Source: Naegleria gruberi
Lineage: Eukaryota
Strand: one strand, 5' to 3'
DNA length: 13,269 nucleotides
Assembly: GCA_000004985.1 (NCBI GenBank)
Contig: GG738997.1
Shown in pieces: positions 1-13,269 of the stretch. The position numbers and the translations under genes are program-made. The notes beneath the pieces were generated by a model. That model was not told the DNA's origin and ran no database searches. It saw only the letters and a list, made by a program, of their open reading frames with translations. Each line of letters starts with the position of its first letter. The stretch's first letter is position 1.

Positions 1-575
1 TCTTTTTCAATATTAAGTGATATCAACTGTTTCATTTCACTTATGAATTTGGCTCCTTCTACACCAATTCGATTGTAAGAAATATCAAGTGATTTTAATT
101 GTTTCACTTCACTTATGAATTTGACTCCTTCTATACCAATTCGATTGCCACAAATATTAAGTGATGTTAATTGTCTCATTTCACTTATGAATTTGACTCC
201 TTCAACATCAACTTGAGTGTAAGAAATATCAAGTGATGTTAATTGTTTCATTTCACTTATATATTTGGCTCCTTCATCAATTTCATTTTTACCAATATTG
301 AGTGATATCAACTGTTTCATTTCACTTAGATATTTGGCTCCTTCATCACCAATTAGATTGGCAGAAATATCAAGTGACGTTAATTGTTTCATTTCACTTA
401 GATATTTGGCTCCTTCATCACCAATTTGATTGGCAGAAATATCAAGTGACGTTAATTGTTTCATTTCACTTATGAATTTGGCTTCTTCATCACCAATTCC
501 ATTGCCAGAAATATTAAGTGATATCAATTGTTTCATTTCACTAATGAATTTGGCTTCTTCAAAAGAATCAAGCAA
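1..575 (-). repeat. 72-bp (24-codon) tandem coding repeat array, about 8 units, within the LRR gene. Adjacent units are near-identical at nucleotide level.
   Basis: The segment cacttatgaatttg recurs at period 72 (for example 38 and 110). Units near 291-362 and 363-434 differ by only a few bases. Confidence 0.85.
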
Positions 576-926
576 CCAATCAGAATATGTAACATTAACA
601 ATACAATTCATAAATTGACTTTTCAAAAATAATTGAACTCGTTTCTTTGTAAATTTTTTTTTAAATTGAATAGCAAGTTTTGAACGTTCCTTGATCACAT
701 TAAAGAATTGTTTTGAAATTAAAGTACAATTATTTAAAATAAACCATGAATCATCAATCATGGAAATTATTTCAAAACAAATGTCATCTGAAAATATTTC
801 TTGTTCCAGTTTTACAACCTTTTTTGATTTCTCTTCCATATTATTATTATTAAAATTGTTAGTGAATATTTCCTCCGAATTAATGAATTGATGATTTTCA
901 AAATCTTGTCTGTTTCGTTTGCTCAT
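1..926 (-). CDS. F-box-like / RNI-type leucine-rich repeat protein. ATG at 926..924 (minus); the C-terminus runs off the left edge of the window. N-terminal F-box-like segment (FSDDICFEIISMIDDSWFILNNCTLISKQFF) is followed by at least 8 tandem 24-aa repeats of the form GAKYISEMKQLTSLDISANQIGDEG.
   Basis: Hand translation of the reverse complement gives one uninterrupted frame from the ATG at 926 down to position 1. An in-frame TAA lies 5 codons upstream of the ATG. The repeats have the 24-residue ribonuclease-inhibitor-like LRR pattern (LxxLxLxxNxIGxEGAKxL). Plus-strand ORFs 430..618 and 691..891 are antisense artefacts of this gene. Confidence 0.8.
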   Translation of the reverse strand, partial: MSKRNRQDFENHQFINSEEIFTNNFNNNNMEEKSKKVVKLEQEIFSDDICFEIISMIDDSWFILNNCTLISKQFFNVIKERSKLAIQFKKKFTKKRVQLFLKSQFMNCIVNVTYSDWLLDSFEEAKFISEMKQLISLNISGNGIGDEEAKFISEMKQLTSLDISANQIGDEGAKYLSEMKQLTSLDISANLIGDEGAKYLSEMKQLISLNIGKNEIDEGAKYISEMKQLTSLDISYTQVDVEGVKFISEMRQLTSLNICGNRIGIEGVKFISEVKQLKSLDISYNRIGVEGAKFISEMKQLISLNIEK

Positions 927-1725
927 TTTTTTAATAAAATTTTAATAATATTTAATTTTTTTAGAATATGGTGTGATTGATCACTTGTAAGTATTGACTT
1001 CACAATCCTTCATAGATTCGAGAAATTATTTGGTGAGATGGTATGCAACCAAAGGAGAAGTTTATTGTTGTGGAACCATCTCATTAAGGCAACAATTCCT
1101 ATTGGAAATTTCCATTATATTAGAATTCACTTGGAGAATTATACAACAATTCAAAGAAAGTTTGTAAAGAAACAGCTCCCTTCTTTGGTTATTTGGCAGA
1201 TTTTGAAAATTTATTCAAATAAATGATTTACGCAATTGATCTTTTCAAGTTTACAAAGCTCCCACTACTTACTGCATCTCATTGATTCATTGAGAAACTG
1301 CCCTTTGGATCTTTGAGAAAAGGGTTTGCTATTCAGATAAGGTGGAGCCGTATCCAAACAATTTTCCAACTGTACTGTACTGTACACTTACTGGATGGAT
1401 AAAGAGCAGGTGCAGTGGAAAATGTGAGAAGGTTTAATAATATTGGATGATGCATTTTTCCTCAATGTTTTTTTCTCTTTCTCACAAATAAAATCAACCA
1501 GAAGTTAGACTTTGTATTGCAAGGAAGTTGAGGAGAAATGGAGTAATATATGGCATTACCCACTTGTGTTGTCCCATTGAGCCTTGTCCAGTTTACCGAA
1601 TAAACGTGATTTTCCGCTTTTCGATTTCTTTTCGGTTGCGTTTTGTTAATAAAATTTTTGTTTTTATTTGAAAAGAACATTTGGTGGTTGTTTGCGGACA
1701 GGTTGAAAGCCGAGTGACAAGTTTG

Positions 1726-2370
1726 TCAACTTAGAGCAAATACGAACAATTCGTTGGTGCTTTTTAAGGTCTTGTTGTAGGATGCATCAAACGAAGAGAG
1801 AGATTGTCCTTTTTTCGCTTTCACTGGCGAAATTACGTGTTTTGCTTTTTTGTACGCTTTATCACCTAACACTCTTTCGTCTGGACCAATGTTCGGTTCT
1901 TTTTCTTGCAACCATTCATCCCACATCTTTTTGTCATGCATCGCACCAGGATACGCATTTGAAACATCAAGAATTTTCGCTGTTGTCAAACTCACTAACA
2001 TTTGATACTTCAATACATGCATTCGCTTTTTATACGAATAATACAATTTCTGTTTGGCCCATAGTTTTTGCTTTTCGATTCTGCTTAATCCGGATTTCTT
2101 TCTACCAGACGGATTTTCAATCCTACATTCTGTACCATCAACAACAGCTTTAATCCTTCTGAACATACCAGTAGCTGTGTTATTAATATCTTTTCTATCA
2201 TCAATATTTAGTGGTGGTAGATTGTTATCTAATACTTTTTGTCCTTTTTCAATGTTTGTGAAATATGATGAACGTGAAACATTCCAGTAAACAGGATGAA
2301 CAAGTGAATTCGGATAAAGTGTTAAATATTCCATCAATATTAAAAACCATTTTTCACTCAATTCGGCCAA
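1726..2370 (-). mobile_element. PIF/Harbinger-superfamily DDE transposase ORF (DDE_Tnp_4 domain), N-terminally truncated or degenerate. No HTH-encoding region is found upstream.
   Basis: Translated motifs: AVVDGTECRIENP (first catalytic D region, compare IDGTHIPI), YSYKKRMHVLKYQMLVSLTTAKILDVSNAYPGAMHDKKMW (compare KHSLNVQ..D..AGWPGSVHD), and RVLGDKAYKKAKHVISP (compare LLGDSAYP). The frame opens directly after a TGA at 2389-2391. Only about 75 aa precede the first D, whereas complete Harbinger transposases have about 140. The reported start is an alternative TTG; the first ATG is internal. Confidence 0.65.
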
Positions 2371-2394: not shown

Positions 2395-3116
2395 GTGAGA
2401 AGAGCATATTATTCGATTTTCGGTAAACAAAAAACAAAAAACGAAACCGAAACCGAACCGGAAGATGACGATGTTTCCGAAAATGTTGATGAAGATATGA
2501 TAGAAAGACAAGAATTTACTGATAGAATGGACAGTTATCTTGCTGAATCTGAGCAAAAAACTGAGAAGAAGAGAAAGAGACAACTTGAGAAGGAGCCAAC
2601 TTATGATGATGAGATGATGAATGTGATTACGAACAATCAGATGAAGATTACGAATATTCGGATGAAGATATTTTACCGGCAACTCCGTCGAAAGTAACAA
2701 AGGTAGTGAGCATTAATGACAAATCAACAAGTTTATTCCGTCCTTTTAGATTCGAATCAGAGACTCATCGCTTCATCATTTATAGATTTCCCACATGGAC
2801 TGATTTTAAATTTTCACATGTGGAGATGTCAAAAGAAAAGATGATAGTTATTCATGTGAAGATTAATGCTAAACTTTCCGAAAGTTGTGTAGTAGAATCT
2901 TTCGCTCCATTTGCGAAAAATTTAAAAGCGAACACTGACAGAAAGGATGAACAGTTCACCATCAAAGAACCGGTTCCGAAAGATGTTGATGTTAAAACTG
3001 TAAAGTGTGGTCCTTTGAATTTGAAAGGCCTTAGTAGTACCGTTTCAGTTTTACCTAGTTGTAATAAACATCGGAAATCTATTTATGAATTTACACAAAA
3101 AACTCGAGGAAGTTAA
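2395..3116 (+). other. Two adjacent ORFs of uncertain reality: an acidic 100-aa ORF at 2395..2697 and a 136-aa ORF at 2706..3116 (first in-frame ATG near 2824). They may be TE-associated or decayed coding sequence next to the Harbinger remnant.
   Basis: The ORF track only. No in-frame ATG near the start of either ORF. No recognisable domain and no Myb/SANT W-spacing. Confidence 0.15.
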
Positions 3117-3122
3117 ATGATC

Positions 3123-3126
<4 letters not shown>

Positions 3127-3164
<38 letters not shown>
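3127..3164. repeat. (AT)19 microsatellite in the spacer between the 2395..3116 ORFs and the 3' end of the minus-strand gene
   Basis: Direct reading of the sequence. Confidence 0.95.
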
Positions 3165-3178: not shown

Positions 3179-4176
3179 TCAATTTGTTCCAGTTAATTTT
3201 AAATCCATAGCTCTAAGAACCTCGTTAAAACCATTTGTCTTTTTCTTGTTGTTAAAGTTTTTCCTTGCTTTGATGAAGGATCTGTTAAACTCCAAAACAG
3301 TATCATCTAAAAACAATTTTTCCTCTTTGTTCACATCTAATTCAACTAAAGTATCCTTCAGCTTGTATTGTTTTCTAGTAATTGTTACATCTTGTACCTT
3401 GAAAATATCATTGTTCAATTCGTCAATAATCAATTTCAATTCATTTCTACAGGCAATAACTTCTGATGAATTGACAGATAATCCATCATAACCATGAATG
3501 CATTTTCCCTTGTAAACTTCATTCAATTCTAACGTCTTGTTTAGCATTACAAATTTCTTATTTTTGTAATCTAAAATCTTATCTTCAGTATAATTTTTGG
3601 AATTCGCAGCCATAACCCCAAATGCAATTTCTCCAATTTCTTCGGAGAACATAGTAAAATTTTCCGTAAAAAAGTCATGAAACGTTTTGGACTTCTTCTT
3701 CCAAAATTCAAATAACAAAGATTGGAATATTTCTGCATTCCTATACAAGTTATGTTTTCCCAAAATAAATAGGTATGTTAATACATCTCTAGATAATGAA
3801 AATTCATTCCAATTTCCAACTCTCAATGCATAATAATAACTTCTAAGGGCTGGTAAAATTGTCTCAAAAAGAATTGTAAAGTTTTTGGCAGCTATCGTAG
3901 TAGTTCTAACATAACAATCATCAGGTAGAGTGTAGTAAGCAAGAGAAACAACATTAATTATATCAGTTAGTTGTTGTAAACCCATTGATTTTTCAAGATA
4001 GCTGGTCACATTGGGATAAGCAGCTTTCAATAAGCGCAATAAATAGTTTTTTCCAAATAGTCTCCAAGTTACAATTGATCCCATTTTATAAACGTGCCAG
4101 AAACCGTTTACACAGATAAATCTTTGTGAATAGTGTTTAAAATTAGTATAATTATGAGACAGTTGAATAATCTTTA

Positions 4177-4216
<40 letters not shown>

Positions 4217-5124
4217 AAAAAAAAACTTACCTTGTAAACTCTTTGAAAAATGTTTACATCAACCTTAAGCATTATCATTTTGTCTTTTGGATACTTTGAA
4301 TCTAGCATCATCAGAACTTGTAAAAGACCTTCGTTTGAATTTATCACATAGGGATCTAGACTTACAGTACGATACTTTGACATTGAAGTGTAGTCATTTA
4401 CGTGTCCATCTGGGTTTCTAATTGGATTATTAAAAAAACCGTCTTTTGAGGGATGTGACTGAAAAGCCCAACAACTATAAACATTCTCATCATCAAAAGG
4501 GTCAATACTTGTTATTGTGTTAAAAACAGATTCATAACAGAATCCGTCGTCCATATTAAATATTACATTATCAAATACTGTGAACTTTTGTAATACAAGT
4601 TTTTGTTTTTTAAATGTGAAACCAGTTGCTGTATAATGTTGATTTGTAAAAACAGCTCGTACAACCTTCATCCTTTTATAGGAAAATATTAAATCAAAGT
4701 TATCTACATGAAACACAACAAGTATATCATCATCTTCAATAATAATTTTAGTTTTTTCCTTTTCTACTCCATAAACTCTATCAAAGTGTCTGTAGAATGT
4801 TGTTTTAAATAATCTATTTTGTGTAAAACTTTTGATAATTCATTACTTACCCCATATCACAAGAGCTTAATAAATACTCGGCAAAACTGTTTGAACAGTT
4901 ATTACGAATAAACATGGCATGAAGAAATCTTTGTTTGTTGTTGTTTCTTTTATGATACTTTAAAAGTGTTAAAACATGAATATGAAACTTCTGCTTATAA
5001 TTCCACAATTCTTCTGAAGTAATATCATTATTGAAAATTAGTAAATTTTCTCTAGAAAATTAACAATTAGACTGGTAAATGTGTGAACAACATACCGTTC
5101 CTTAATAACAAATGATTCAAACAT
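3179..5124 (-). CDS. Four-exon gene on the minus strand encoding a 601-aa protein of unknown function. CDS join(5124..5096, 5051..4851, 4813..4231, 4171..3179), with introns 5095..5052 (44 nt), 4850..4814 (37 nt) and 4230..4172 (59 nt, containing (TA)16).
   Basis: The ATG at 5124..5122 is followed by a gtatgt donor. The phases at all three junctions are consistent: CG|A gives R, GG|A gives G, and a phase-0 join gives K|I. The total CDS is 1806 nt, which is 602 codons. In-frame stops in the introns force splicing. Polypeptide begins MFESFVIKERENLLIFNNDITSEELWNYKQKF and ends KLTGTN. I recognise no conserved domain. Confidence 0.7.
4181..4212. repeat. (TA)16 microsatellite inside intron 3 of the minus-strand gene
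   Basis: Direct reading. Confidence 0.95.
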
Positions 5125-5151: not shown

Positions 5152-5186
<35 letters not shown>

Positions 5187-5347: not shown

Positions 5348-5823
5348 ATGCCAAAATCACCTTCAGCAAAAACAAACAAACCAACAAGCCCAAATCTTAC
5401 AAAACCACAACCTCCATTCAAGAGACAAGCAATTCCGTTGCCGGAAAACATTGAACTTTTAAGTTGGAAGAGAGGAATTAATTCAAACAATTATATTTCT
5501 AACGGTGATAATTTTTGGTCTTTCCGTTTTGAAGATGGTTTGTTAACATTAACAAACTATCCGATGAGAACTGATGATGACGACCATCAAGTGGTTGATA
5601 TTTCCGGTGGCAGTAAAGTCGTAGGTAAATTGATGACTGTTGCCCATGTTGCTACTGATCCTAAAAGTGTCAATCAGGTTATTGGAGTAACTGTATTGAC
5701 AAATAGTGGTGTTAAAAACTTGGTTTTGCGCTTTGGTGATCTTCTAACAAGTGAGTTTACAAAGGAGAGCGGATTTGACCGCTCCCACTGTAAGAGGGTT
5801 GATATTTTTGTAAGTAAGTATCG

Positions 5824-5858
<35 letters not shown>

Positions 5859-6494
5859 ATATATCTAGAACATTGGAATAGTTATTTAACAGAACAAATG
5901 CAAAATGAGGGTGATGACGAAGCATCTAAAGATAAGACAACCCCAAGCAGGGATAAAAAGTCAAATCCATCAATTTTTGATGATGAAGATGAGAATGAGG
6001 ATGATGGTGTTAGTAAACAACTCAACTTTACTCAAGAGGACGTTCAAGATTTTAATTCCTCTAAAGAAACACCATCAGTTTCGAAGCTTAAGATCAAGAA
6101 AAGTAAGTACTAACTTGTTTATGTTTGTGTTAACAATTTGCAGAACCAAGAGCTTCTCTTACTTCCTCTTCTTCCTACGTTGTAAAAGGTTCAATGTCAA
6201 CCTCTAAAATTGCCTCCATCATTGTACCTAAAACAGACACACCTACCAACAAGAAAGATTTAGAGCTTGGTAGGACTGGAGAAATAATCAAACAATTTGG
6301 TTTTCCTGCTAGTGTCTCCATTAAGGTAACAAGAATTAAAGTTCCAGAGTCATCCATAGCTGTTCGTGAAATCAGTTTAGAGCATGTAAAATCAATTGTT
6401 GATGAGATTAGAGGTGGTGGAAAAGCGTTGAGCTCCGAAGTTGGTTTGGTTGAGATGAAAGTCGCTCCAAACAGTTCTGCTTCAGGTATGTAGT

Positions 6495-6537
<43 letters not shown>

Positions 6538-6975
6538 CAGTGACTATCAAAAATCTTGTACAAAAGTTGAAAAGAGAGAATAGGGACGAAGATGCAATAA
6601 TGGAAGAATTGCAAGAATTAATTGAGAACGATGAAGAAAACATCGAACTGTTTGTGCATGGTAGTACTCATTATACCCTTGCATTAACAGCTGCTTTTCA
6701 ACAATTACCTCAGATTGAAAGGACATCTGAAAACACACCTAGACATGACTATGTAAGTTTATTAATAATTTCTTTTCTTATTGTATTAGTATGTTGTATT
6801 CAATATCCCAGATCATGAGTTATTGCAATTAGCAACAATGCACAATACAAACGTCAAACAATTAGCTATGGATTTCCCTTCAATACTTATTAACGTGAGA
6901 AGAACCTTAAAATTCTTTCTAACGAAATATCCTAACTCTGTAATGTACGTTAACTCAGATGGAATAGAAGGTAAG

Positions 6976-7006
<31 letters not shown>

Positions 7007-7710
7007 TTTTTCACAAATAATTTTTTCAGAGAGGAGACTTATTAGATTTGTGGAAGGAGGAGCAAAGCTTTTTAAAAGCGAAATAATTAAGGTATTTGGT
7101 CTCAATGAAAACTCAGCAATACACTATCAGACTCTATCATTTTGGTCTCATAGATGTTGGGATAGGCTTGTTGAAATTGCTAAAACTAAAAAGAAGAATA
7201 GTAATACTCCTTTACTTAAAAGTTTAGCTACTTTTATTACAAAGGTTGGTAGTTGCAAAGGTATTCCTGAAGAAGAGATATATTATTCGCTTGAGCAATT
7301 CTTGAATTTTGGTAACATTCAAAGTATGGTTAATCATATCAATCATACCAAGTGTGTATTATTTGGATTTAGCGAAATTACAAAGTATTTTTCTGAAATA
7401 CCTGATTTAAAAGGAATGGCAAAGAGACTTCCAAACATTTACAAAGCATTAGTTAGTGATTCAATGCACGACTCAGAATTGAAACAAGTAGAAGAAAAAA
7501 CATTGTCATTCACTTCCACCGACTTGTACTTAAATATTAGAAGAGAGTTAAGTGGAAACCCTAAAACTTCTTCGACTACAGATGTATCATTTCCAGTTGT
7601 GACAGAACAGTTGAAAGTAGAACGAAATGGTTATTCGGCAATATTATTATATGGAGATGTTTTGGAGTTAGCAAACATCTTTCCAAAGAAAGTATCGTAT
7701 GGTAAGTTTT

Positions 7711-7748
<38 letters not shown>

Positions 7749-8635
7749 CAAATGTAGATTTAATGATTTGCGATTTGCCATATGGTGTTTTTAAAGATTC
7801 CCCTTATGATGTCTTATTTACTGATGACCAATTGAAAGAGTTTATTGACAATTTATACCAAATCACTCCAGACACGAATTTTCCAACTTGGATCTTCTTT
7901 GGGGAGTATAAGCAAATTGTAAAGCTTCAAGAATTAATTGAACTAAAGAAAGGCAATGCAGTTATATGTATTTGGGTGAAAAATGGTCGTCAATTTGGTG
8001 CAAACTTTGGTACGTATAAGTATGAAAGCTTCCTTCTTTGCTTCCCCAACAAGCAAGTGAATATCAAGCCACAGGGTTTCAGTTTATCACCATTCAGTAT
8101 TTGCTTTCCATCAGAGACTAACTTTTTGAAAGACTCCAACTCAAGAGAGTGTAACAAGGGTCAGAAGCCTCTTTCTTTAATTTCGTGGCTTGTTTATCAA
8201 TTTTCCAACGTTGACGGTATTGTTCTTGATTTATGTTCGGGAACTGCCACCACAGCAGTAGCTGCAGTTAGTTATGGTAGAAATTCGATCAGTTTAGAAA
8301 GTAATCATGGCCAATTCGAACACGCTGCAGAACGACTCAAATTATCAGAATTTGAGAAGGTAAATTTTGAACCCTTAGTTGTTTGTACAGTATCTGAAGA
8401 CAAGGAAAAAAAGGAAAAAAAGAAATCTACAAAAAGAAAAACAGCACCCACCAAGAAAACACCGAAAAAAGCAAGCAAAAAGAAAAAAACTGAAACACCT
8501 TTAAAGGGAAGTAAAATGCAATCGAAAAAGGCAGAGGAAATTGCGATGAAATACATAGACAGCGAAGCAGTAGAAATGGCATCTGATGAAGAGAATGTCA
8601 GCGAAAAAGATGAGGAAGAAGATGATGAAGAATAG
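5348..8635 (+). CDS. Seven-exon gene encoding a ~994-aa protein. Its C-terminal third is a beta-class (motif IV then motif I) N6-adenine/N4-cytosine-type DNA amino-methyltransferase domain (N6_N4_Mtase fold), followed by a Lys-rich basic tail and an acidic tail. CDS join(5348..5813, 5869..6102, 6144..6485, 6541..6752, 6790..6970, 7030..7701, 7758..8635).
   Basis: Every junction is GT-AG and phase-consistent, and the exons sum to 2985 nt (995 codons). The first intron's acceptor is ambiguous (5868 or 5892), and both options stay in frame. The 37-nt intron 6753..6789 is forced, because an in-frame TAG sits immediately before the exon-5 start. MTase motifs: LLYGDVLELANIFPKKVSY|D|LMICDLPYG (compare GDxLExLxxLPxxSVDLIxTDPPY), GQKPLSLISWLVYQFSNVDGIVLDLCSGTATTAVAAVSYGRNSISLE (compare TQKPxxLxxRLIxxxSxxGDxVLDPFxGSGTTxxAAxxLGRxxIGIE), and HGQFEHAAERLK. 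Tail: KEKKEKKKSTKRKTAPTKKTPKKASKKKKTETPLKGSKMQSKK ... SDEENVSEKDEEEDDEE-stop. Confidence 0.85.
5827..5854. repeat. (AT)14 in intron 1 of the methyltransferase gene
   Basis: Direct reading. Confidence 0.95.
6498..6529. repeat. (AT)16 in intron 3 of the methyltransferase gene
   Basis: Direct reading. Confidence 0.95.
6981..7006. repeat. (AT)13 in intron 5 of the methyltransferase gene
   Basis: Direct reading. Confidence 0.95.
7714..7745. repeat. (AT)16 in intron 6 of the methyltransferase gene. This intron interrupts the MTase catalytic domain.
   Basis: Direct reading. Confidence 0.95.
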
Positions 8636-9120: not shown

Positions 9121-9378
9121 ACAATTTCACTTCTGCTTTCATTCGAATTTCCGAATTTTCCTGTTTTTCCGTTAAGTCGGACACAGCTCATTGATTGAAA
9201 CAGAATTGCAATTTCTTGAGAGAATGATGACCTTTCAACTCGGAGTTTTCTCGTTTACCCGCAACGATAAAATCCTTAAAAAAATTTTTACGCAAAAAAA
9301 AACGTTTTTAACCTTTCTGTGCGATTTCTGCGTTCATCAAAAAGACACCACAAAAAACACAAGAAGGGACAAAAAACT

Positions 9379-11920
9379 ATGAAGCCTTTAGCTGTGATGG
9401 TGAAAGTGGAGCCTGGGCAACAACAACAATCGCCATCCACTCCATCCACACCAACCAATTCCTCCTCCACCAATAATACCACAAATAATTCTCATATTGC
9501 TTCTAGTGGTCACCATCATCATGTGGGTAATAATCATAATCATCAGCACAATAATTTAATCATGATGAATCCGAGTTCATCAATTTACCCTTCCTGTTTG
9601 CCTCTTGCTATGAAGAGCAATTCTTCCTCTTTTATTCCTTCCCAGACACCTCCACCTCCACATCAACAAGGATTCAGTCTTCCTTCCATTCATAATTTGA
9701 CTTCACAACAACCATCTTCAAAAGTCATGGTGGATCACATTCATCACTATCAACAACAACATCCACAATCGTGGCGTGGTAATAATATGGAACCAAAACC
9801 ACCTCTTCATAGTAATGGTGGTCATGATTTGATGGAAGCCTTGTCAGCACAACCACAAACTATTGTAAGATATGCACCTCCTCTTTATCAAGCCATTATT
9901 CAACCAAGTATTGATATTGTTCCTATGGATAGTTTTATTCCTGGCTATATATCTGGATACAGAAAGACTCCACAGCAAGTAACAATTGGGACAAGTCCTG
10001 AAATGCAACCATCATCTAATCCTTCCTCTTCCACAACAACTGGAATTATTGTCACAAACAGTCCTACCATGACACCAGTTAAGGTTTCTCACTGTATTGC
10101 TGACCAAGAGTTGGTAAAGACAACACAATCAGTAATAGTGGCCTCCTCATCCGCCCAACAAGCCCCTTCATCCAATAACACCCAAACCCAACAACCACCC
10201 ACAGATCCAAGTCAAGCCAGAATGGCATGTATAAATTGTAGAAAATCACATCGTAAATGGTAAGTATTTTCAATGTATTAGGCAGGTTGTTATTGACTCT
10301 AATTTAGTGGTAAGTATTTGTAGAGATTACAGTAAAATTTACAGACCCCATTTTAAAGATAAGGGAATGCCTTGTGGTGAATGTAAAAAGAGAGGAATAC
10401 CTGATGAATGTGTTTATTATGAACCTAAGAAGAGAGGACCAAAGATGAAGACAGCTGAAGAGGAAGCTCAAAGTAAGGAGGAAGCAAAGAAAAGAAAGGT
10501 CTCTAAGAAGAATGAGGTTCCCTCTGCAACAGTAGTAGATTTGGAAAGGACCAATCTATTGCAGTCTAACTCTCAGATAATTGCCTCCAGCAGCTCCAAT
10601 GCAGCAACTACCACACCAGTAATCCCAGCCCTCTTCTCTAGAAAGGAAATTGATAGAAGAAATTACATTTTACACATGATCTTCCCTGAAGCAAACCTCC
10701 CTAATGATATTAAGGAAAACTGTCCAGATGATAGCTTTAACGAAATGTTTCGTCTCTTTTTATCAGATGAATTCGTTAGCTTTTTGGTTGAGTGTATGGA
10801 TGGTAATAAGAGTAAGAATCAATTGATGCCTTTCATTAGAGAAAAGGTTCTCCTCTCTATTCTCAATAGAATTATGGAACCATACTACCACGGCATGTAT
10901 TTTTCCCTAGAGTCTCTCTTTTTGAAATACTATTGTCTATTCAAGCTCTCCCCACATGATGATAATAGACCAATCTTATTGTTAGAAAGTGAGAAGAGTG
11001 TAAAGCAAAATAAGAAGGATTTCAATATTATCACCAATGACATACAGACTATAATTTGTAATCTGTGGAGTTCCTTCTTTAATACCATCCTCGAATTCAA
11101 GAGTGTGAATTCATCCTACAATCAACTCGTCATTAAGAATATGCTTGATCTAATTGTGAACAAGTTATCAGAGAATGTTGATATTCAAAGTGTATTGGAG
11201 TTACAACATGCTCTATTTACCAGATACTTGTTGCTCATTGAAATCCATCAACAGATTGAGGGATGTACAACCAATAGTGTACAGTTCAAGAAATTGGTGT
11301 TCAACTTTCTCAAGCTTACTTACCTCTCTGGAATCACTACGAAATCAGCAAAACTTGTCGATCAATTTGAAAAGTTTAACACGAAATTCTTTGCCATTCT
11401 CACTAGTCAGTACAGCTCCATGTCACTGAATACCAACTATGTTATGGCAGAAATGGAATGCTTTATTCCAAGAAACTTGACAGAATGTTTGACCTTCTTG
11501 AGCGTTATCACATCAGAAGGGGAGCAAGATTTGGAAGTTCTCTTCTTGGAGTACATGTCCAAGTTGTTGAACTTGAGTATTTACATGCAAGGTATTCTCA
11601 ACACTAACGATAAGAATCTTCAAGAAATGAATGCAAGCGTTGGGAAAGATTTCTTCCACATAGCCAAGAACCTCAAATCTCCAATTATTCTTTCAATCCT
11701 CAATTCCCTGCAGAATTATCTCATTACCTCCTTTTTTGAAAATACTATATCTATTCCAGAGTCTCCACAATTGGAAAATCAATTTAAGGAACGTATTTTA
11801 ACTAGTGCCAGTCAATTTGAACATCAAGATCATTTCTACTTGAGAGCAAGTAATTCTCTAATTCGAGGAAAAGATTTGTCAGAGATGCGGAAAGAGTCAA
11901 AGAAAGTATTTATAAAATAA
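9379..11920 (+). CDS. Zn(II)2Cys6 (fungal-type binuclear zinc cluster) transcription factor, about 822 aa, two exons. CDS join(9379..10259, 10333..11920). A low-complexity Q/H/N/S/P-rich N-terminal region of about 280 aa precedes the zinc cluster. A basic linker and a large C-terminal region follow it.
   Basis: The ATG at 9379 sits in an A-rich context (aaaaaact ATG). Exon 1 ends ...ACINCRKSHRK + tg. The intron has a gtaagt donor and a ttacag acceptor at 10331-10332. The splice restores TGT (Cys), giving ACINCRKSHRK-C-KIYRPHFKDKGMP-CGEC-KKRGIPDE-C, which is CX2CX6CX13CX2CX8C. The two exons sum to 2469 nt (823 codons). The spacing is within the known Zn2Cys6 range. The C-terminal domain was not matched to a named family. 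Confidence 0.75.
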
Positions 11921-11930
11921 TCTTGTAATA

Positions 11931-13269
11931 TTATTTACCATAGTATGGGATTGTGTTCTTCTTTCTGGAGAACCAAACATTTCTCTTACCAGTCTTGCCC
12001 AAGTATGCAGTGATTGCTTCAACTGAAACTTCGCTTCCTCTAAAGATTTTTGGTGTGGATGATTTGAAAAAGAGTCCTGAAATTCCTGAGCTATCTTCTA
12101 AAACAACAACCTTATCATAGTATGCATTCAAAATGTAACGAATGGGCACAGCATCGTCTGCTGTCAATTCAGTAATAATGTGATCAATCATAAAGGAGAG
12201 TGTTCTCAAACCACCAGCAAAGACATCATCTGACTTTTTAGAAATATCAACCTTTAGCAAATTGATATGAATATCTGCCGAGAAGTAGTCCTCATCGAGT
12301 GAGATGGTTTCAACAGATCCTGGAGTCTTACTTTCAGTTTCCTCATCTGCAGTAACAACATTTGTAAGATCAGCATTGTACTTGGTTGAGTATTGAATAT
12401 ATTTTCTGGCATCTCTGAAAACAGCCAAGTTTTTAACTGAAACCAATTTGTCAACATCATTTAGAGATGCAGAACTCTTAATCACTTCCACCATTTTTGG
12501 TTGAATTTCATACGAGATAACTTTACAACCCAACAGTGCAGGATAAATTGAATAAAATCCCAAATGAGAACCAACATCAACAATGAGACACTTCTTTCCA
12601 GTTATTTTTGAATCTCTTTGGAATTTCTCAATTAACATTTTGAATAGTTCTTCAGTTGCTGATTCCCAATTGCCATATCTAACCATGTGCTTTGAAAATC
12701 CAGTATCTCTAGCAGGATTCAACACTCTCATATAAAAGGATGGATTGGTATTTGTTTTTACAATATACCCAACAAGTCTATTATCATCTCTAACCAATGG
12801 AATCAAACCCTTTGGTTTGTTAGATTGTACAGCAATTAAAATCATAAATATCAATCCAATAACTGCCAATACAGAAATAATCAAATTCCTTGAAGGCAAC
12901 TTGTCCAAAAATGTTAAATATTTCGCTTTAATTCCACACATTCTCAATAAATTTCTAAATATTCTCGGAATGAAAGAAAAGATACTTCCAAGCCTTCTCA
13001 TCCAAACACCAGAAAAAGCCTTCACCGATTTTTCTCCCAAAATATTACTTTCATGATTTAATATTAATGGGAGTTGTTGATTTAAAGTACTACCACCACC
13101 ACCACTAGTAGCCATCTCCTCATCCTTTGATGGTGGCGATCGGGAAATTATATTAGATGAAACTGTTGTTGTTGTATTGGATCGGTTAAAGTTAGTCATG
13201 ATTGGTGCGAGTTCATCATCATCGGAATTATTTATTCTGATCAAAGATGACGACAATGAAGAATCATTA
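11931..13269 (-). CDS. FkbM-family (Methyltransf_21) SAM-dependent methyltransferase with a predicted N-terminal transmembrane anchor (LIISVLAVIGLIFMILIAV). It is 5'-partial: the reading frame stays open to the right edge of the window and the reported TTG start is not the true start.
   Basis: Motifs: KKCLIVDVGSHLGFYSIYPALLGCKVISYEIQPKMVEVI (compare vfDvGAniG..slyfa..ga.rviafEP of FkbM), and INLLKVDISKKSDDVFAGGLRTL (compare idllKiDvEGaE). Single exon over 441+ codons. Stop codon TAA at 11933..11931. Confidence 0.8.
   Translation of the reverse strand, partial: NDSSLSSSLIRINNSDDDELAPIMTNFNRSNTTTTVSSNIISRSPPSKDEEMATSGGGGSTLNQQLPLILNHESNILGEKSVKAFSGVWMRRLGSIFSFIPRIFRNLLRMCGIKAKYLTFLDKLPSRNLIISVLAVIGLIFMILIAVQSNKPKGLIPLVRDDNRLVGYIVKTNTNPSFYMRVLNPARDTGFSKHMVRYGNWESATEELFKMLIEKFQRDSKITGKKCLIVDVGSHLGFYSIYPALLGCKVISYEIQPKMVEVIKSSASLNDVDKLVSVKNLAVFRDARKYIQYSTKYNADLTNVVTADEETESKTPGSVETISLDEDYFSADIHINLLKVDISKKSDDVFAGGLRTLSFMIDHIITELTADDAVPIRYILNAYYDKVVVLEDSSGISGLFFKSSTPKIFRGSEVSVEAITAYLGKTGKRNVWFSRKKNTIPYYGK

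Follow-up and report, generated by a model that had tools for sequence, protein, structure and literature searches.

M.Phi145I and M.Phi93I are orphan beta-class N6-adenine methyltransferases of lactococcal phages of the 936 type (Skunavirus) (Murphy et al. 2014, PMC4190342). Nisin-induced production of M.Phi145I protects plasmid DNA from HphI, whereas DNA from uninduced cells and from cells with the empty vector is cut, and single-molecule real-time (SMRT) sequencing of the phage revealed the modified sequence GGWG-6mA (6mA, N6-methyladenine), which was assigned to this enzyme (PMC4190342). M.Phi145I corresponds to gene Phi145_02 of phage phi145 (AIK68646.1), and the published cloning primers encode the same termini (PMC4190342). 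The translation of the gene starts with MIELNK, ends with ISENE and contains the segments MILCDLPYGTT, HPTQKP and VLDNCAGSFTT. Its motif IV, the catalytic tetrapeptide for which the textbook consensus is (D/N/S)PP(Y/F/W), is thus DLPY. The present work concerns the same tetrapeptide in the protein encoded by NAEGRDRAFT_76461 of Naegleria gruberi, located on a complete scaffold of 13,269 bp (GG738997.1) that was analyzed as a whole and is referred to below as the window. An earlier note on this DNA had treated the Leu at position 2 of the tetrapeptide as a rare substitution that might alter or abolish catalysis. The reading that we consider clearly the most probable is that DLPY is no lesion but an ordinary, clade-typical motif IV of a branch of the PF01555 family, and that the protein most likely still is an N6-adenine methyltransferase.

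Further described systems are also relevant to this locus. Fusions of a ParB-CTPase/Srx fold with an N6_N4 methyltransferase occur in phages, prophages and conjugative plasmids and are frequent in the first two (bioRxiv 10.1101/2025.10.10.680097). [quoted passage not shown] In Naegleria, 6mA was found at ApT sites in approximately 644 genes and attributed to the MT-A70 enzyme AMT1, and 5-methylcytosine was found confined to transposons (PMC12695648).

The coordinates and the peptide reported for motif IV in the earlier note proved exact when the window was read again (Table 1). A seven-exon model of NAEGRDRAFT_76461, built by hand from the window sequence, gave an unbroken reading frame of 994 aa, identical residue for residue to the database protein XP_002668621.1/EFC35877.1 (P0028), which is annotated as "predicted protein". 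Introns 1 to 6 comprise 55, 41, 55, 37, 59 and 56 nt, and all start with GTAAGT or GTATGT and end with AG. Intron 6, overlooked in the earlier note, breaks the open reading frame (ORF) 15 nt, or five codons, ahead of the Asp of motif IV; since this GT-AG intron splits the ORF, the gene is eukaryotic. Among spliceosomal introns, intron 4 (GTAAGT...TATTAG) is unusual for its short length; it is needed to maintain the frame and its removal is confirmed by the annotated protein. A second D-x-P-Y, the DSPY found 8 residues beyond DLPY, matches the W-D segment of the family and not motif IV. Judged from the sequence, it is probably coincidental; the chance expectation of D-x-P-[YFW] is about 0.2 per protein of this composition.

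The assignment of DLPY to motif IV of a beta-class amino-methyltransferase is borne out by the Pfam match, by the motif order IV-X-I and by the fold. The Naegleria protein scores 38.6-40.8 bits with PF01555 (N6_N4_Mtase), whose gathering score is 26.7, over positions 2-220 of the 221 of the profile, and DLPY falls inside this match. Alignment to a characterized beta-class enzyme, which had been proposed as a check, was obtained with phmmer against PDB sequences: DLPY lands on the DPPY of CcrM, the segment LLYGDVLELANIFPKKVSYDLMICDLPYGV is aligned to a CcrM segment and so is the segment NKGQKPLSLISWLVYQFSNVDGIVLDLCSGTATTAVAAVSYGRNSISLES. The beta-class order is held, with GD at residues 687-688, DLPY at 708-711, NKGQKP at 835-840, motif I at 858-868 and E883; the catalytic motif is N-terminal to the motif for S-adenosyl-methionine (SAM), which is the circular permutation IV ... 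X - I - II. In beta-class enzymes the GD of motif III is the N-terminal element that contacts SAM. In an AlphaFold2 model computed with the family as alignment, the predicted local distance difference test (pLDDT) score of the methyltransferase domain is mostly >90, DLPY is positioned at the C-terminal end of the strand 704-708 and motif I follows the strand 857-860. The best PDB matches found with Foldseek were CcrM (E 3e-13), M.BceJIV, M1.HpyAVI, MboIIA and RsrI, with N4-cytosine enzymes close behind. The literal motif IV consensus is broken by the Leu at position 2; the residues at the functional positions, Asp, second Pro and the aromatic one, are present.

The frequency of DLPY among relatives was determined with an exhaustive HMMER search, which uses no word index and gave 975 matches at E <=1e-3, 150 of which were listed. 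The tally was restricted to matches confined to the C-terminal half, so that retrieval was independent of motif IV, and relatives with an HxxQKP box and an identifiable motif IV were counted as bacterial/phage-type. Among the matches listed, 35 of 51 such relatives carry DLPY and 8 carry DPPY, DMPY is found twice and DVPY, DAPY, DIPY, DLPF, DPPF and SQPF once each; sampled by similarity to a DLPY query, these numbers describe the branch and not the whole of PF01555. The supposed rarity of Leu at position 2 does not hold here, DLPY being the majority form. With a word-index protein search, 27 bacterial-type relatives were retrieved, each of them bearing C-DLPYG-TT. Such a search retrieves sequences that share 5-mers with the query and enriches DLPY, and it missed the Naegleria protein itself as well as its homologues P0029 and P0030. 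Because of this bias the 27 matches were set aside and the tally was redone from the exhaustive search. Relatives of a DLPY representative are present in 1,089 phage records, many of them beside or between terminase genes. No paper pairing 'DLPY' with methyltransferase was found.

In 19 eukaryote-type domains, 19-37 % identical to that of Naegleria, the Asp and the second Pro of motif IV and the Gly that follows are invariant, as are W-x-K, the Asn and Lys of N-x-x-QKP and one Gly of motif I. Position 4 of motif IV is aromatic (Y/F/W/H) in all 19, and position 2 is occupied by P, L, I or W, and by A in a further member (P0180). C-x-G-x-[G/A/F/H] in motif I is typical of the DLPY clade. In a rough neighbour-joining tree, which is descriptive only, the Naegleria protein falls together with P0029 and P0030, both of which have DLPY, inside the eukaryote-type clade, the eukaryote-type branches bearing L or I are separate from those with DPPY or DPPF, and the DLPY-rich phage/bacterial clade with M.Phi145I forms the neighbouring group. 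Co-variation of motif-IV position 2 with the motif-I Phe was unconvincing (Fisher p 0.04, calculated on non-independent sequences).

Hydrogen bonds to the amino group of the target come from the side chain of motif-IV residue 1 and from the backbone carbonyl that lies between positions 2 and 3, and residue 4 provides stacking on the base (PMC4738411); proton abstraction by residue 1 and stacking by residue 4 are also given by Woodcock et al. 2020 (PMC7544214). In these enzymes the exocyclic amino group of the flipped-out base is held and deprotonated by the side chain of the Asp together with the backbone carbonyl that follows position 2; stacking on the base falls to the aromatic residue, and motifs I, II, III and X hold SAM. 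Position 2 therefore has to supply only backbone, and Pro can give way to Leu, Ile, Met, Val, Ala or Trp. The conservation pattern of the sub-clade fits a position 2 that contributes nothing except this backbone carbonyl. The suggestion that the change from Pro to Leu alters or destroys catalysis is not supported: M.Phi145I, with MILCDLPYGTT, is an active 6mA DNA methyltransferase. From these analogies we infer the activity, the base specificity and the DNA substrate of the Naegleria domain, whose most likely function is N6-adenine DNA methylation.

The Naegleria domain shares with M.Phi145I and M.Phi93I the PF01555 family, the motif order IV-X-I, CDLPYG and the QKP box. In motif I, M.Phi145I has Cys in place of Phe and Phe, again not Gly, at the second Gly, deviations akin to those of the Naegleria VLDLCSGTATT. 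The phage DLPY enzymes differ in being single-domain, intronless proteins of ~250-285 aa with HPTQKP and LDNC, encoded between terminase genes, whereas the Naegleria protein of 994 aa has long upstream regions, a charged tail, NKGQKP and LDLC, and its gene contains 6 spliceosomal introns. Domain identity to the phage-type DLPY enzymes is at most ~30 %.

Several long relatives of the Naegleria protein (P0038, 902 aa; P0045, 1035 aa; P0053, 890 aa; P0054, 1104 aa; P0141, 670 aa) have a common layout: a low-complexity N-terminus is followed by a segment that bears a GGNH(S/T)R box, then by a helical middle part, the methyltransferase and a charged tail. A ParB fold is present in a long relative. 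The bacterial ParB-methyltransferase fusions P0137, P0196 and P0198 consist of an N-terminal ParB fold followed by a beta-class methyltransferase, and the Naegleria region aligns, with weak statistics, to this ParB module; the bacterial fusions are proteins of ~420 aa with a PF02195 match and mostly DPPY, whereas in the eukaryotic proteins a long helical insert separates the two domains. [quoted passage not shown] In box II, Naegleria has GSTHYT in place of GGNHSR. Substitution by Ala of the Arg of box II or the P-motif (G-x-x-R) abolishes nucleoside triphosphate binding in ParB-fold proteins, and since Thr replaces this Arg in Naegleria its ParB-derived module is probably degenerate. In the proposed scheme the Naegleria protein would be a eukaryotic, intron-bearing descendant of ParB-fold and methyltransferase fusions of the phage/plasmid type, presumably targeted through the ParB-derived and helical regions upstream and the Lys-rich tail. 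A short, conserved acidic motif that follows the Lys-rich stretch, KYIDSEA, has counterparts in P0029 (QYIDSEA), P0053 (DFIDDS) and P0141 (DYIDK) and may serve protein interaction.

The view of the Naegleria family as a eukaryotic version of ParB-fold and N6_N4 methyltransferase fusions agrees with the origin proposed for Clade 3 by Iyer et al. The gene fits Group-1 Clade 3 by its permuted methyltransferase and its unusual strand-4 motif, and it is presumably one of the genes placed there. The sub-clade is wider than Naegleria, with ~40 eukaryote-looking relatives in environmental assemblies, several of them with PHD-like Cys/His modules, which suggests, from sequence, a chromatin-associated radiation beyond the 'Naegleria-only' distribution of 2016. 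In many eukaryote-type relatives (P0034, P0099, P0181-P0192) this Cys/His-rich PHD-like module is C-terminal and motif I reads LDLCAGSH(S/A). The MT-A70 writers (AMT1/MTA1, METTL3, METTL4) also have the beta-class motif order but are more distant structural neighbours, belonging to PF05063, with DPPW, ApT specificity and a multi-subunit complex; in the Pfam scan the Naegleria protein matched only PF01555, with no match to MT-A70 (PF05063). A close structural match is N4CMT of bdelloid rotifers (PMC8885841, PDB 8s9n), a horizontally acquired PF01555 methyltransferase of bacterial type that was combined with a chromodomain and domesticated in a eukaryote. It produces N4-methylcytosine and belongs to the class with Ser in motif IV, whereas in the Naegleria protein the residue is Asp and the region upstream is ParB-derived.

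An artefact of sequencing or assembly at the Leu codon might be suspected, given that the window, a small scaffold, is unplaced and contains many (AT)n tracts. Against this, TTG differs from every Pro codon at at least two positions, the frame of the seven exons is intact, and DLPY recurs in independent samples: in P0029 (37 % identical) and P0030 (~32-35 %), the nearest homologues among the matches listed, which come from independent metagenomes, and in the close homologues P0038 and P0067. The contig of P0030 (L003) has ~21 % GC and therefore comes from a different organism; its Leu codon is TTA. It contains a GT-AG intron of phase 1 five codons ahead of the motif Asp, exactly the position and phase of Naegleria intron 6, and the alignment of the spliced L003 protein with that of Naegleria spans the junction (E 2e-27). 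Since the intron position and phase are shared and the Leu codons are synonymous, an error is practically excluded. The scenario in which orthologues would show DPPY, or the codon would be an error, thus gives way to nearest homologues that keep DLPY.

A number of observations weigh against an active methyltransferase derived from ParB fusions, and some of them favour a catalytically dead pseudo-enzyme or 'reader', in which the fold would be kept for binding DNA, a methylated base or a partner (cf. METTL14, MTA9) and Leu709 with a degenerate motif I would mark the loss of catalysis. Motif I is doubly deviant, without the SAM-stacking Phe (Cys) and without the second Gly (Ala), although the clade shares such deviations. 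The nucleotide-binding Arg is gone from the ParB-like box, the ParB homology of the region rests on a weak hhalign alignment, box on box, with E 0.88, and a profile search of PDB sequences with the GGNH(S/T)R segment retrieved no ParB. Naegleria 6mA is described only as ApT methylation of the AMT1 type, with none assigned to NAEGRDRAFT_76461, which is absent from that account (PMC12695648), and beta-class enzymes are often dimers with a division of labour. The activity of the Naegleria protein and of every eukaryote-type member is a prediction from sequence, and the DLPY tally carries the sampling bias given above. Known inactive paralogues, in contrast, have residue 1 and/or residue 4 eroded, as in NALW of MTA9 and EPPL of METTL14 (PMC7544214), whereas D708 and Y711 are kept in Naegleria and conserved in its sub-clade, where D, P and G stay invariant at ~19-37 % identity to Naegleria. 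QKP is likewise kept, as are the Asp of motif III and the Glu of motif II, and M.Phi145I is active with DLPY, Cys for Phe and a non-Gly residue at the second Gly. The "impaired reader" idea of the earlier note has lost its sole argument, the Leu at position 2, and a dead enzyme is considered unlikely. Somewhat less likely still is an active methyltransferase whose substrate is a different one, either cytosine in DNA, methylated at N4, or an amino group of RNA or protein; Leu709 would then reshape the pocket. Related amino-methyltransferases such as HemK and METTL16 were earlier re-assigned to protein or RNA, and the region from W-x-K to N-x-x-QKP is short, so that sequence specificity is unreadable. 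The first residue of motif IV is, however, Asp708, invariant in the sub-clade, and not the Ser (SPPY/SPPF) of the N4-cytosine clades (PMC4738411). The sole characterized DLPY enzyme makes 6mA in DNA, which upholds the earlier expectation that the leading Asp favours N6-adenine over N4-cytosine, and the upstream module of ParB type and the Lys-rich tail suit a DNA or chromatin setting.

Table 1 Features of the window and of the metagenome contig L005 (positions on L005 are marked as such)
Feature	Position	Strand	Remarks
Tandem array	9-562		scaffold end; 72-nt unit, 7.7 copies, 83 % match
PIF/Harbinger-type DDE transposase ORF	1726-2370	-	PF13359 DDE_Tnp_4, E 1.4e-16; probably a fragment
Divergent neighbour gene	3179-4839	-	at least two exons, 4839-4231 and 4171-3182; stop 3181-3179
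Neighbour-gene intron	4230-4172	-	59 nt, contains (AT)n
(AT)15-21 tracts, eight	3123-3164, 4180-4213, 5155-5186, 5827-5864, 6498-6529, 6976-7006, 7714-7745, 8679-8708		
Gene NAEGRDRAFT_76461	5348-8635	+	stop included; 994 aa, 7 exons
Exons of NAEGRDRAFT_76461	5348-5813, 5869-6102, 6144-6485, 6541-6752, 6790-6970, 7030-7701, 7758-8635	+	
ParB/Srx-fold-aligned region	6362-6704	+	aa ~307-402; spans intron 3; moderate AlphaFold2 prediction in Naegleria
Box II equivalent	6660-6677	+	G388-S-T-H-Y-T393; Thr at the Arg position of GGNH(S/T)R of relatives
Intron 4	6753-6789	+	37 nt
Beta-class N6/N4 amino-methyltransferase domain	7602-8380	+	aa ~670-910, at the C-terminal end; split by intron 6
Motif III	7653-7658	+	G687-D688 in LLYGDVLE; aligned to IIHGDCIE of CcrM
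Intron 6	7702-7757	+	56 nt, GT-AG, phase 1; GTAAGT...(AT)16...TGTAG
Motif IV	7772-7783	+	GAT TTG CCA TAT, D708-L709-P710-Y711; context LMICDLPYG
DSPY	7796-7807	+	second D-x-P-Y
W-x-K	7973-7981	+	W775-V-K777; W and K invariant across the eukaryote-type sub-clade
QKP box	8153-8170	+	N835-K-G-Q-K-P840; sub-clade form of the canonical HPTQKP box ahead of motif X
Motif I	8222-8254	+	VLDLCSGTATT; canonical VLDPFxGxGTT, Phe to Cys, second Gly to Ala
Motif II	8291-8302	+	S-L-E883-S; acidic residue ending strand 2; aligned to IGIE of CcrM
Disordered tail	8402-8632	+	aa 918-994; Lys-rich, then acidic
KYIDSEA	8549-8569	+	tail motif
Two-exon gene	9319-11920	+	Zn2Cys6-like cluster
441-aa ORF	11931-13256	-	weak SAM-methyltransferase-like matches
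L005: neighbour gene	128-2048	-	GC-rich metagenome contig; divergent to the P0045 methyltransferase gene
L005: inverted repeat	647-819 / 6661-6822		at least 170 nt, ~96 % identity; brackets the 5' part of the neighbour and the methyltransferase gene; runs off the contig end
L005: divergent intergenic region	2718-2934		perfect 43-nt palindromes

The divergently oriented gene next to NAEGRDRAFT_76461 has no Pfam family match. Its spliced product is similar to the protein of the divergent neighbour of the P0045 methyltransferase gene on L005 (BLASTP E 1e-06 in a single comparison, over 246 aa); with the split ORFs of the neighbour tblastn was marginal (E 0.15), and significance was reached only after splicing. 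The two proteins have in common the segments D...G-x-W-H-V-[YF]-K and SEE-x-GE-x-A, among other features. P0045 is a 23 % identical relative of the Naegleria methyltransferase, and as the spliced neighbours are homologous, the methyltransferase/neighbour pair recurs in two very distant genomes. A profile search with the neighbour protein turned up nothing beyond a single near-duplicate of the L005 protein. The repeat arrangement of L005, a single metagenome contig, resembles a mobile element. A scan of metagenome loci yielded 11 marine contigs of the DPPY type, too short for a test of the gene pair.

In the window the (AT)15-21 tracts are restricted to the 3.1-8.7 kb part of the scaffold, with none elsewhere. 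They are located in introns 1, 3, 5 and 6 of the methyltransferase gene, 3' of its stop codon, in the intron and on the 3' side of the neighbour and in the divergent intergenic region. The introns with (AT)n look templated, with the form GTAAGT-N3-9-(AT)n-T-rich-AG and a length of 55-59 nt, and an introner-like origin or a shared history of both genes is a possibility. The methyltransferase gene and its divergent neighbour could form an undescribed two-gene unit, possibly mobile and spread among distant protists, derived from ParB-methyltransferase counter-restriction modules of phages and plasmids and writing a second layer of adenine methylation; we regard this as a speculative and rather improbable proposal. 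It is supported by the homology of the neighbour to that on L005, by the L005 inverted repeat, by the occurrence of (AT)n only at both Naegleria genes and by the remnant of a Harbinger transposase on the same scaffold. These are hints at a mobile or co-inherited unit and do not prove one. Against it stand the mere two instances of pairing, the lack of a recognizable transposase domain in the neighbour and a search around the two Naegleria genes for terminal inverted repeats, which yielded only (AT)n-based matches. If the proposal is true, the unit would write a second adenine methylation layer independent of AMT1, for example to mark or protect its own DNA.

Since the window contains a PIF/Harbinger-type ORF, the scaffold carries transposon material (Table 1). 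The two-exon gene downstream of NAEGRDRAFT_76461 encodes a Zn2Cys6-like cluster split by the intron (ACINCRKSHRK...intron...CGECKKRGIPDEC; weak PF00172 match, E 0.02) and a long low-complexity sequence rich in Q/H/S/T/N. The 441-aa ORF on the opposite strand, with TRM5/TYW2 among its weak matches (E 0.005) and a VDVGSHLGFYS motif, may, as far as the sequence goes, be a second, unrelated gene with a methyltransferase fold. No paper citing the identifiers of NAEGRDRAFT_76461 was found.

The literal (D/N/S)PP(Y/F/W) consensus of textbooks is too narrow, because most relatives in this branch, including the active M.Phi145I, break it; a whole beta-class branch uses D-[L/I/M/V/A/W]-P-[Y/F], and annotators should not infer inactivity from a residue other than Pro at motif-IV position 2. 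Naegleria probably possesses a functional adenine methyltransferase of bacterial type that is distinct from AMT1. The methylome of N. gruberi has already been mapped, and NAEGRDRAFT_76461 is a concrete candidate for any 6mA signal outside ApT. The wider sub-clade, with its ParB-fold or PHD-like fusions in uncultured eukaryotes, suggests that counter-restriction enzymes of phages were domesticated as chromatin proteins more than once. The motif itself is ordinary; the gene and its eukaryotic relatives represent a little-studied case of domesticated ParB-methyltransferase modules of the phage type.

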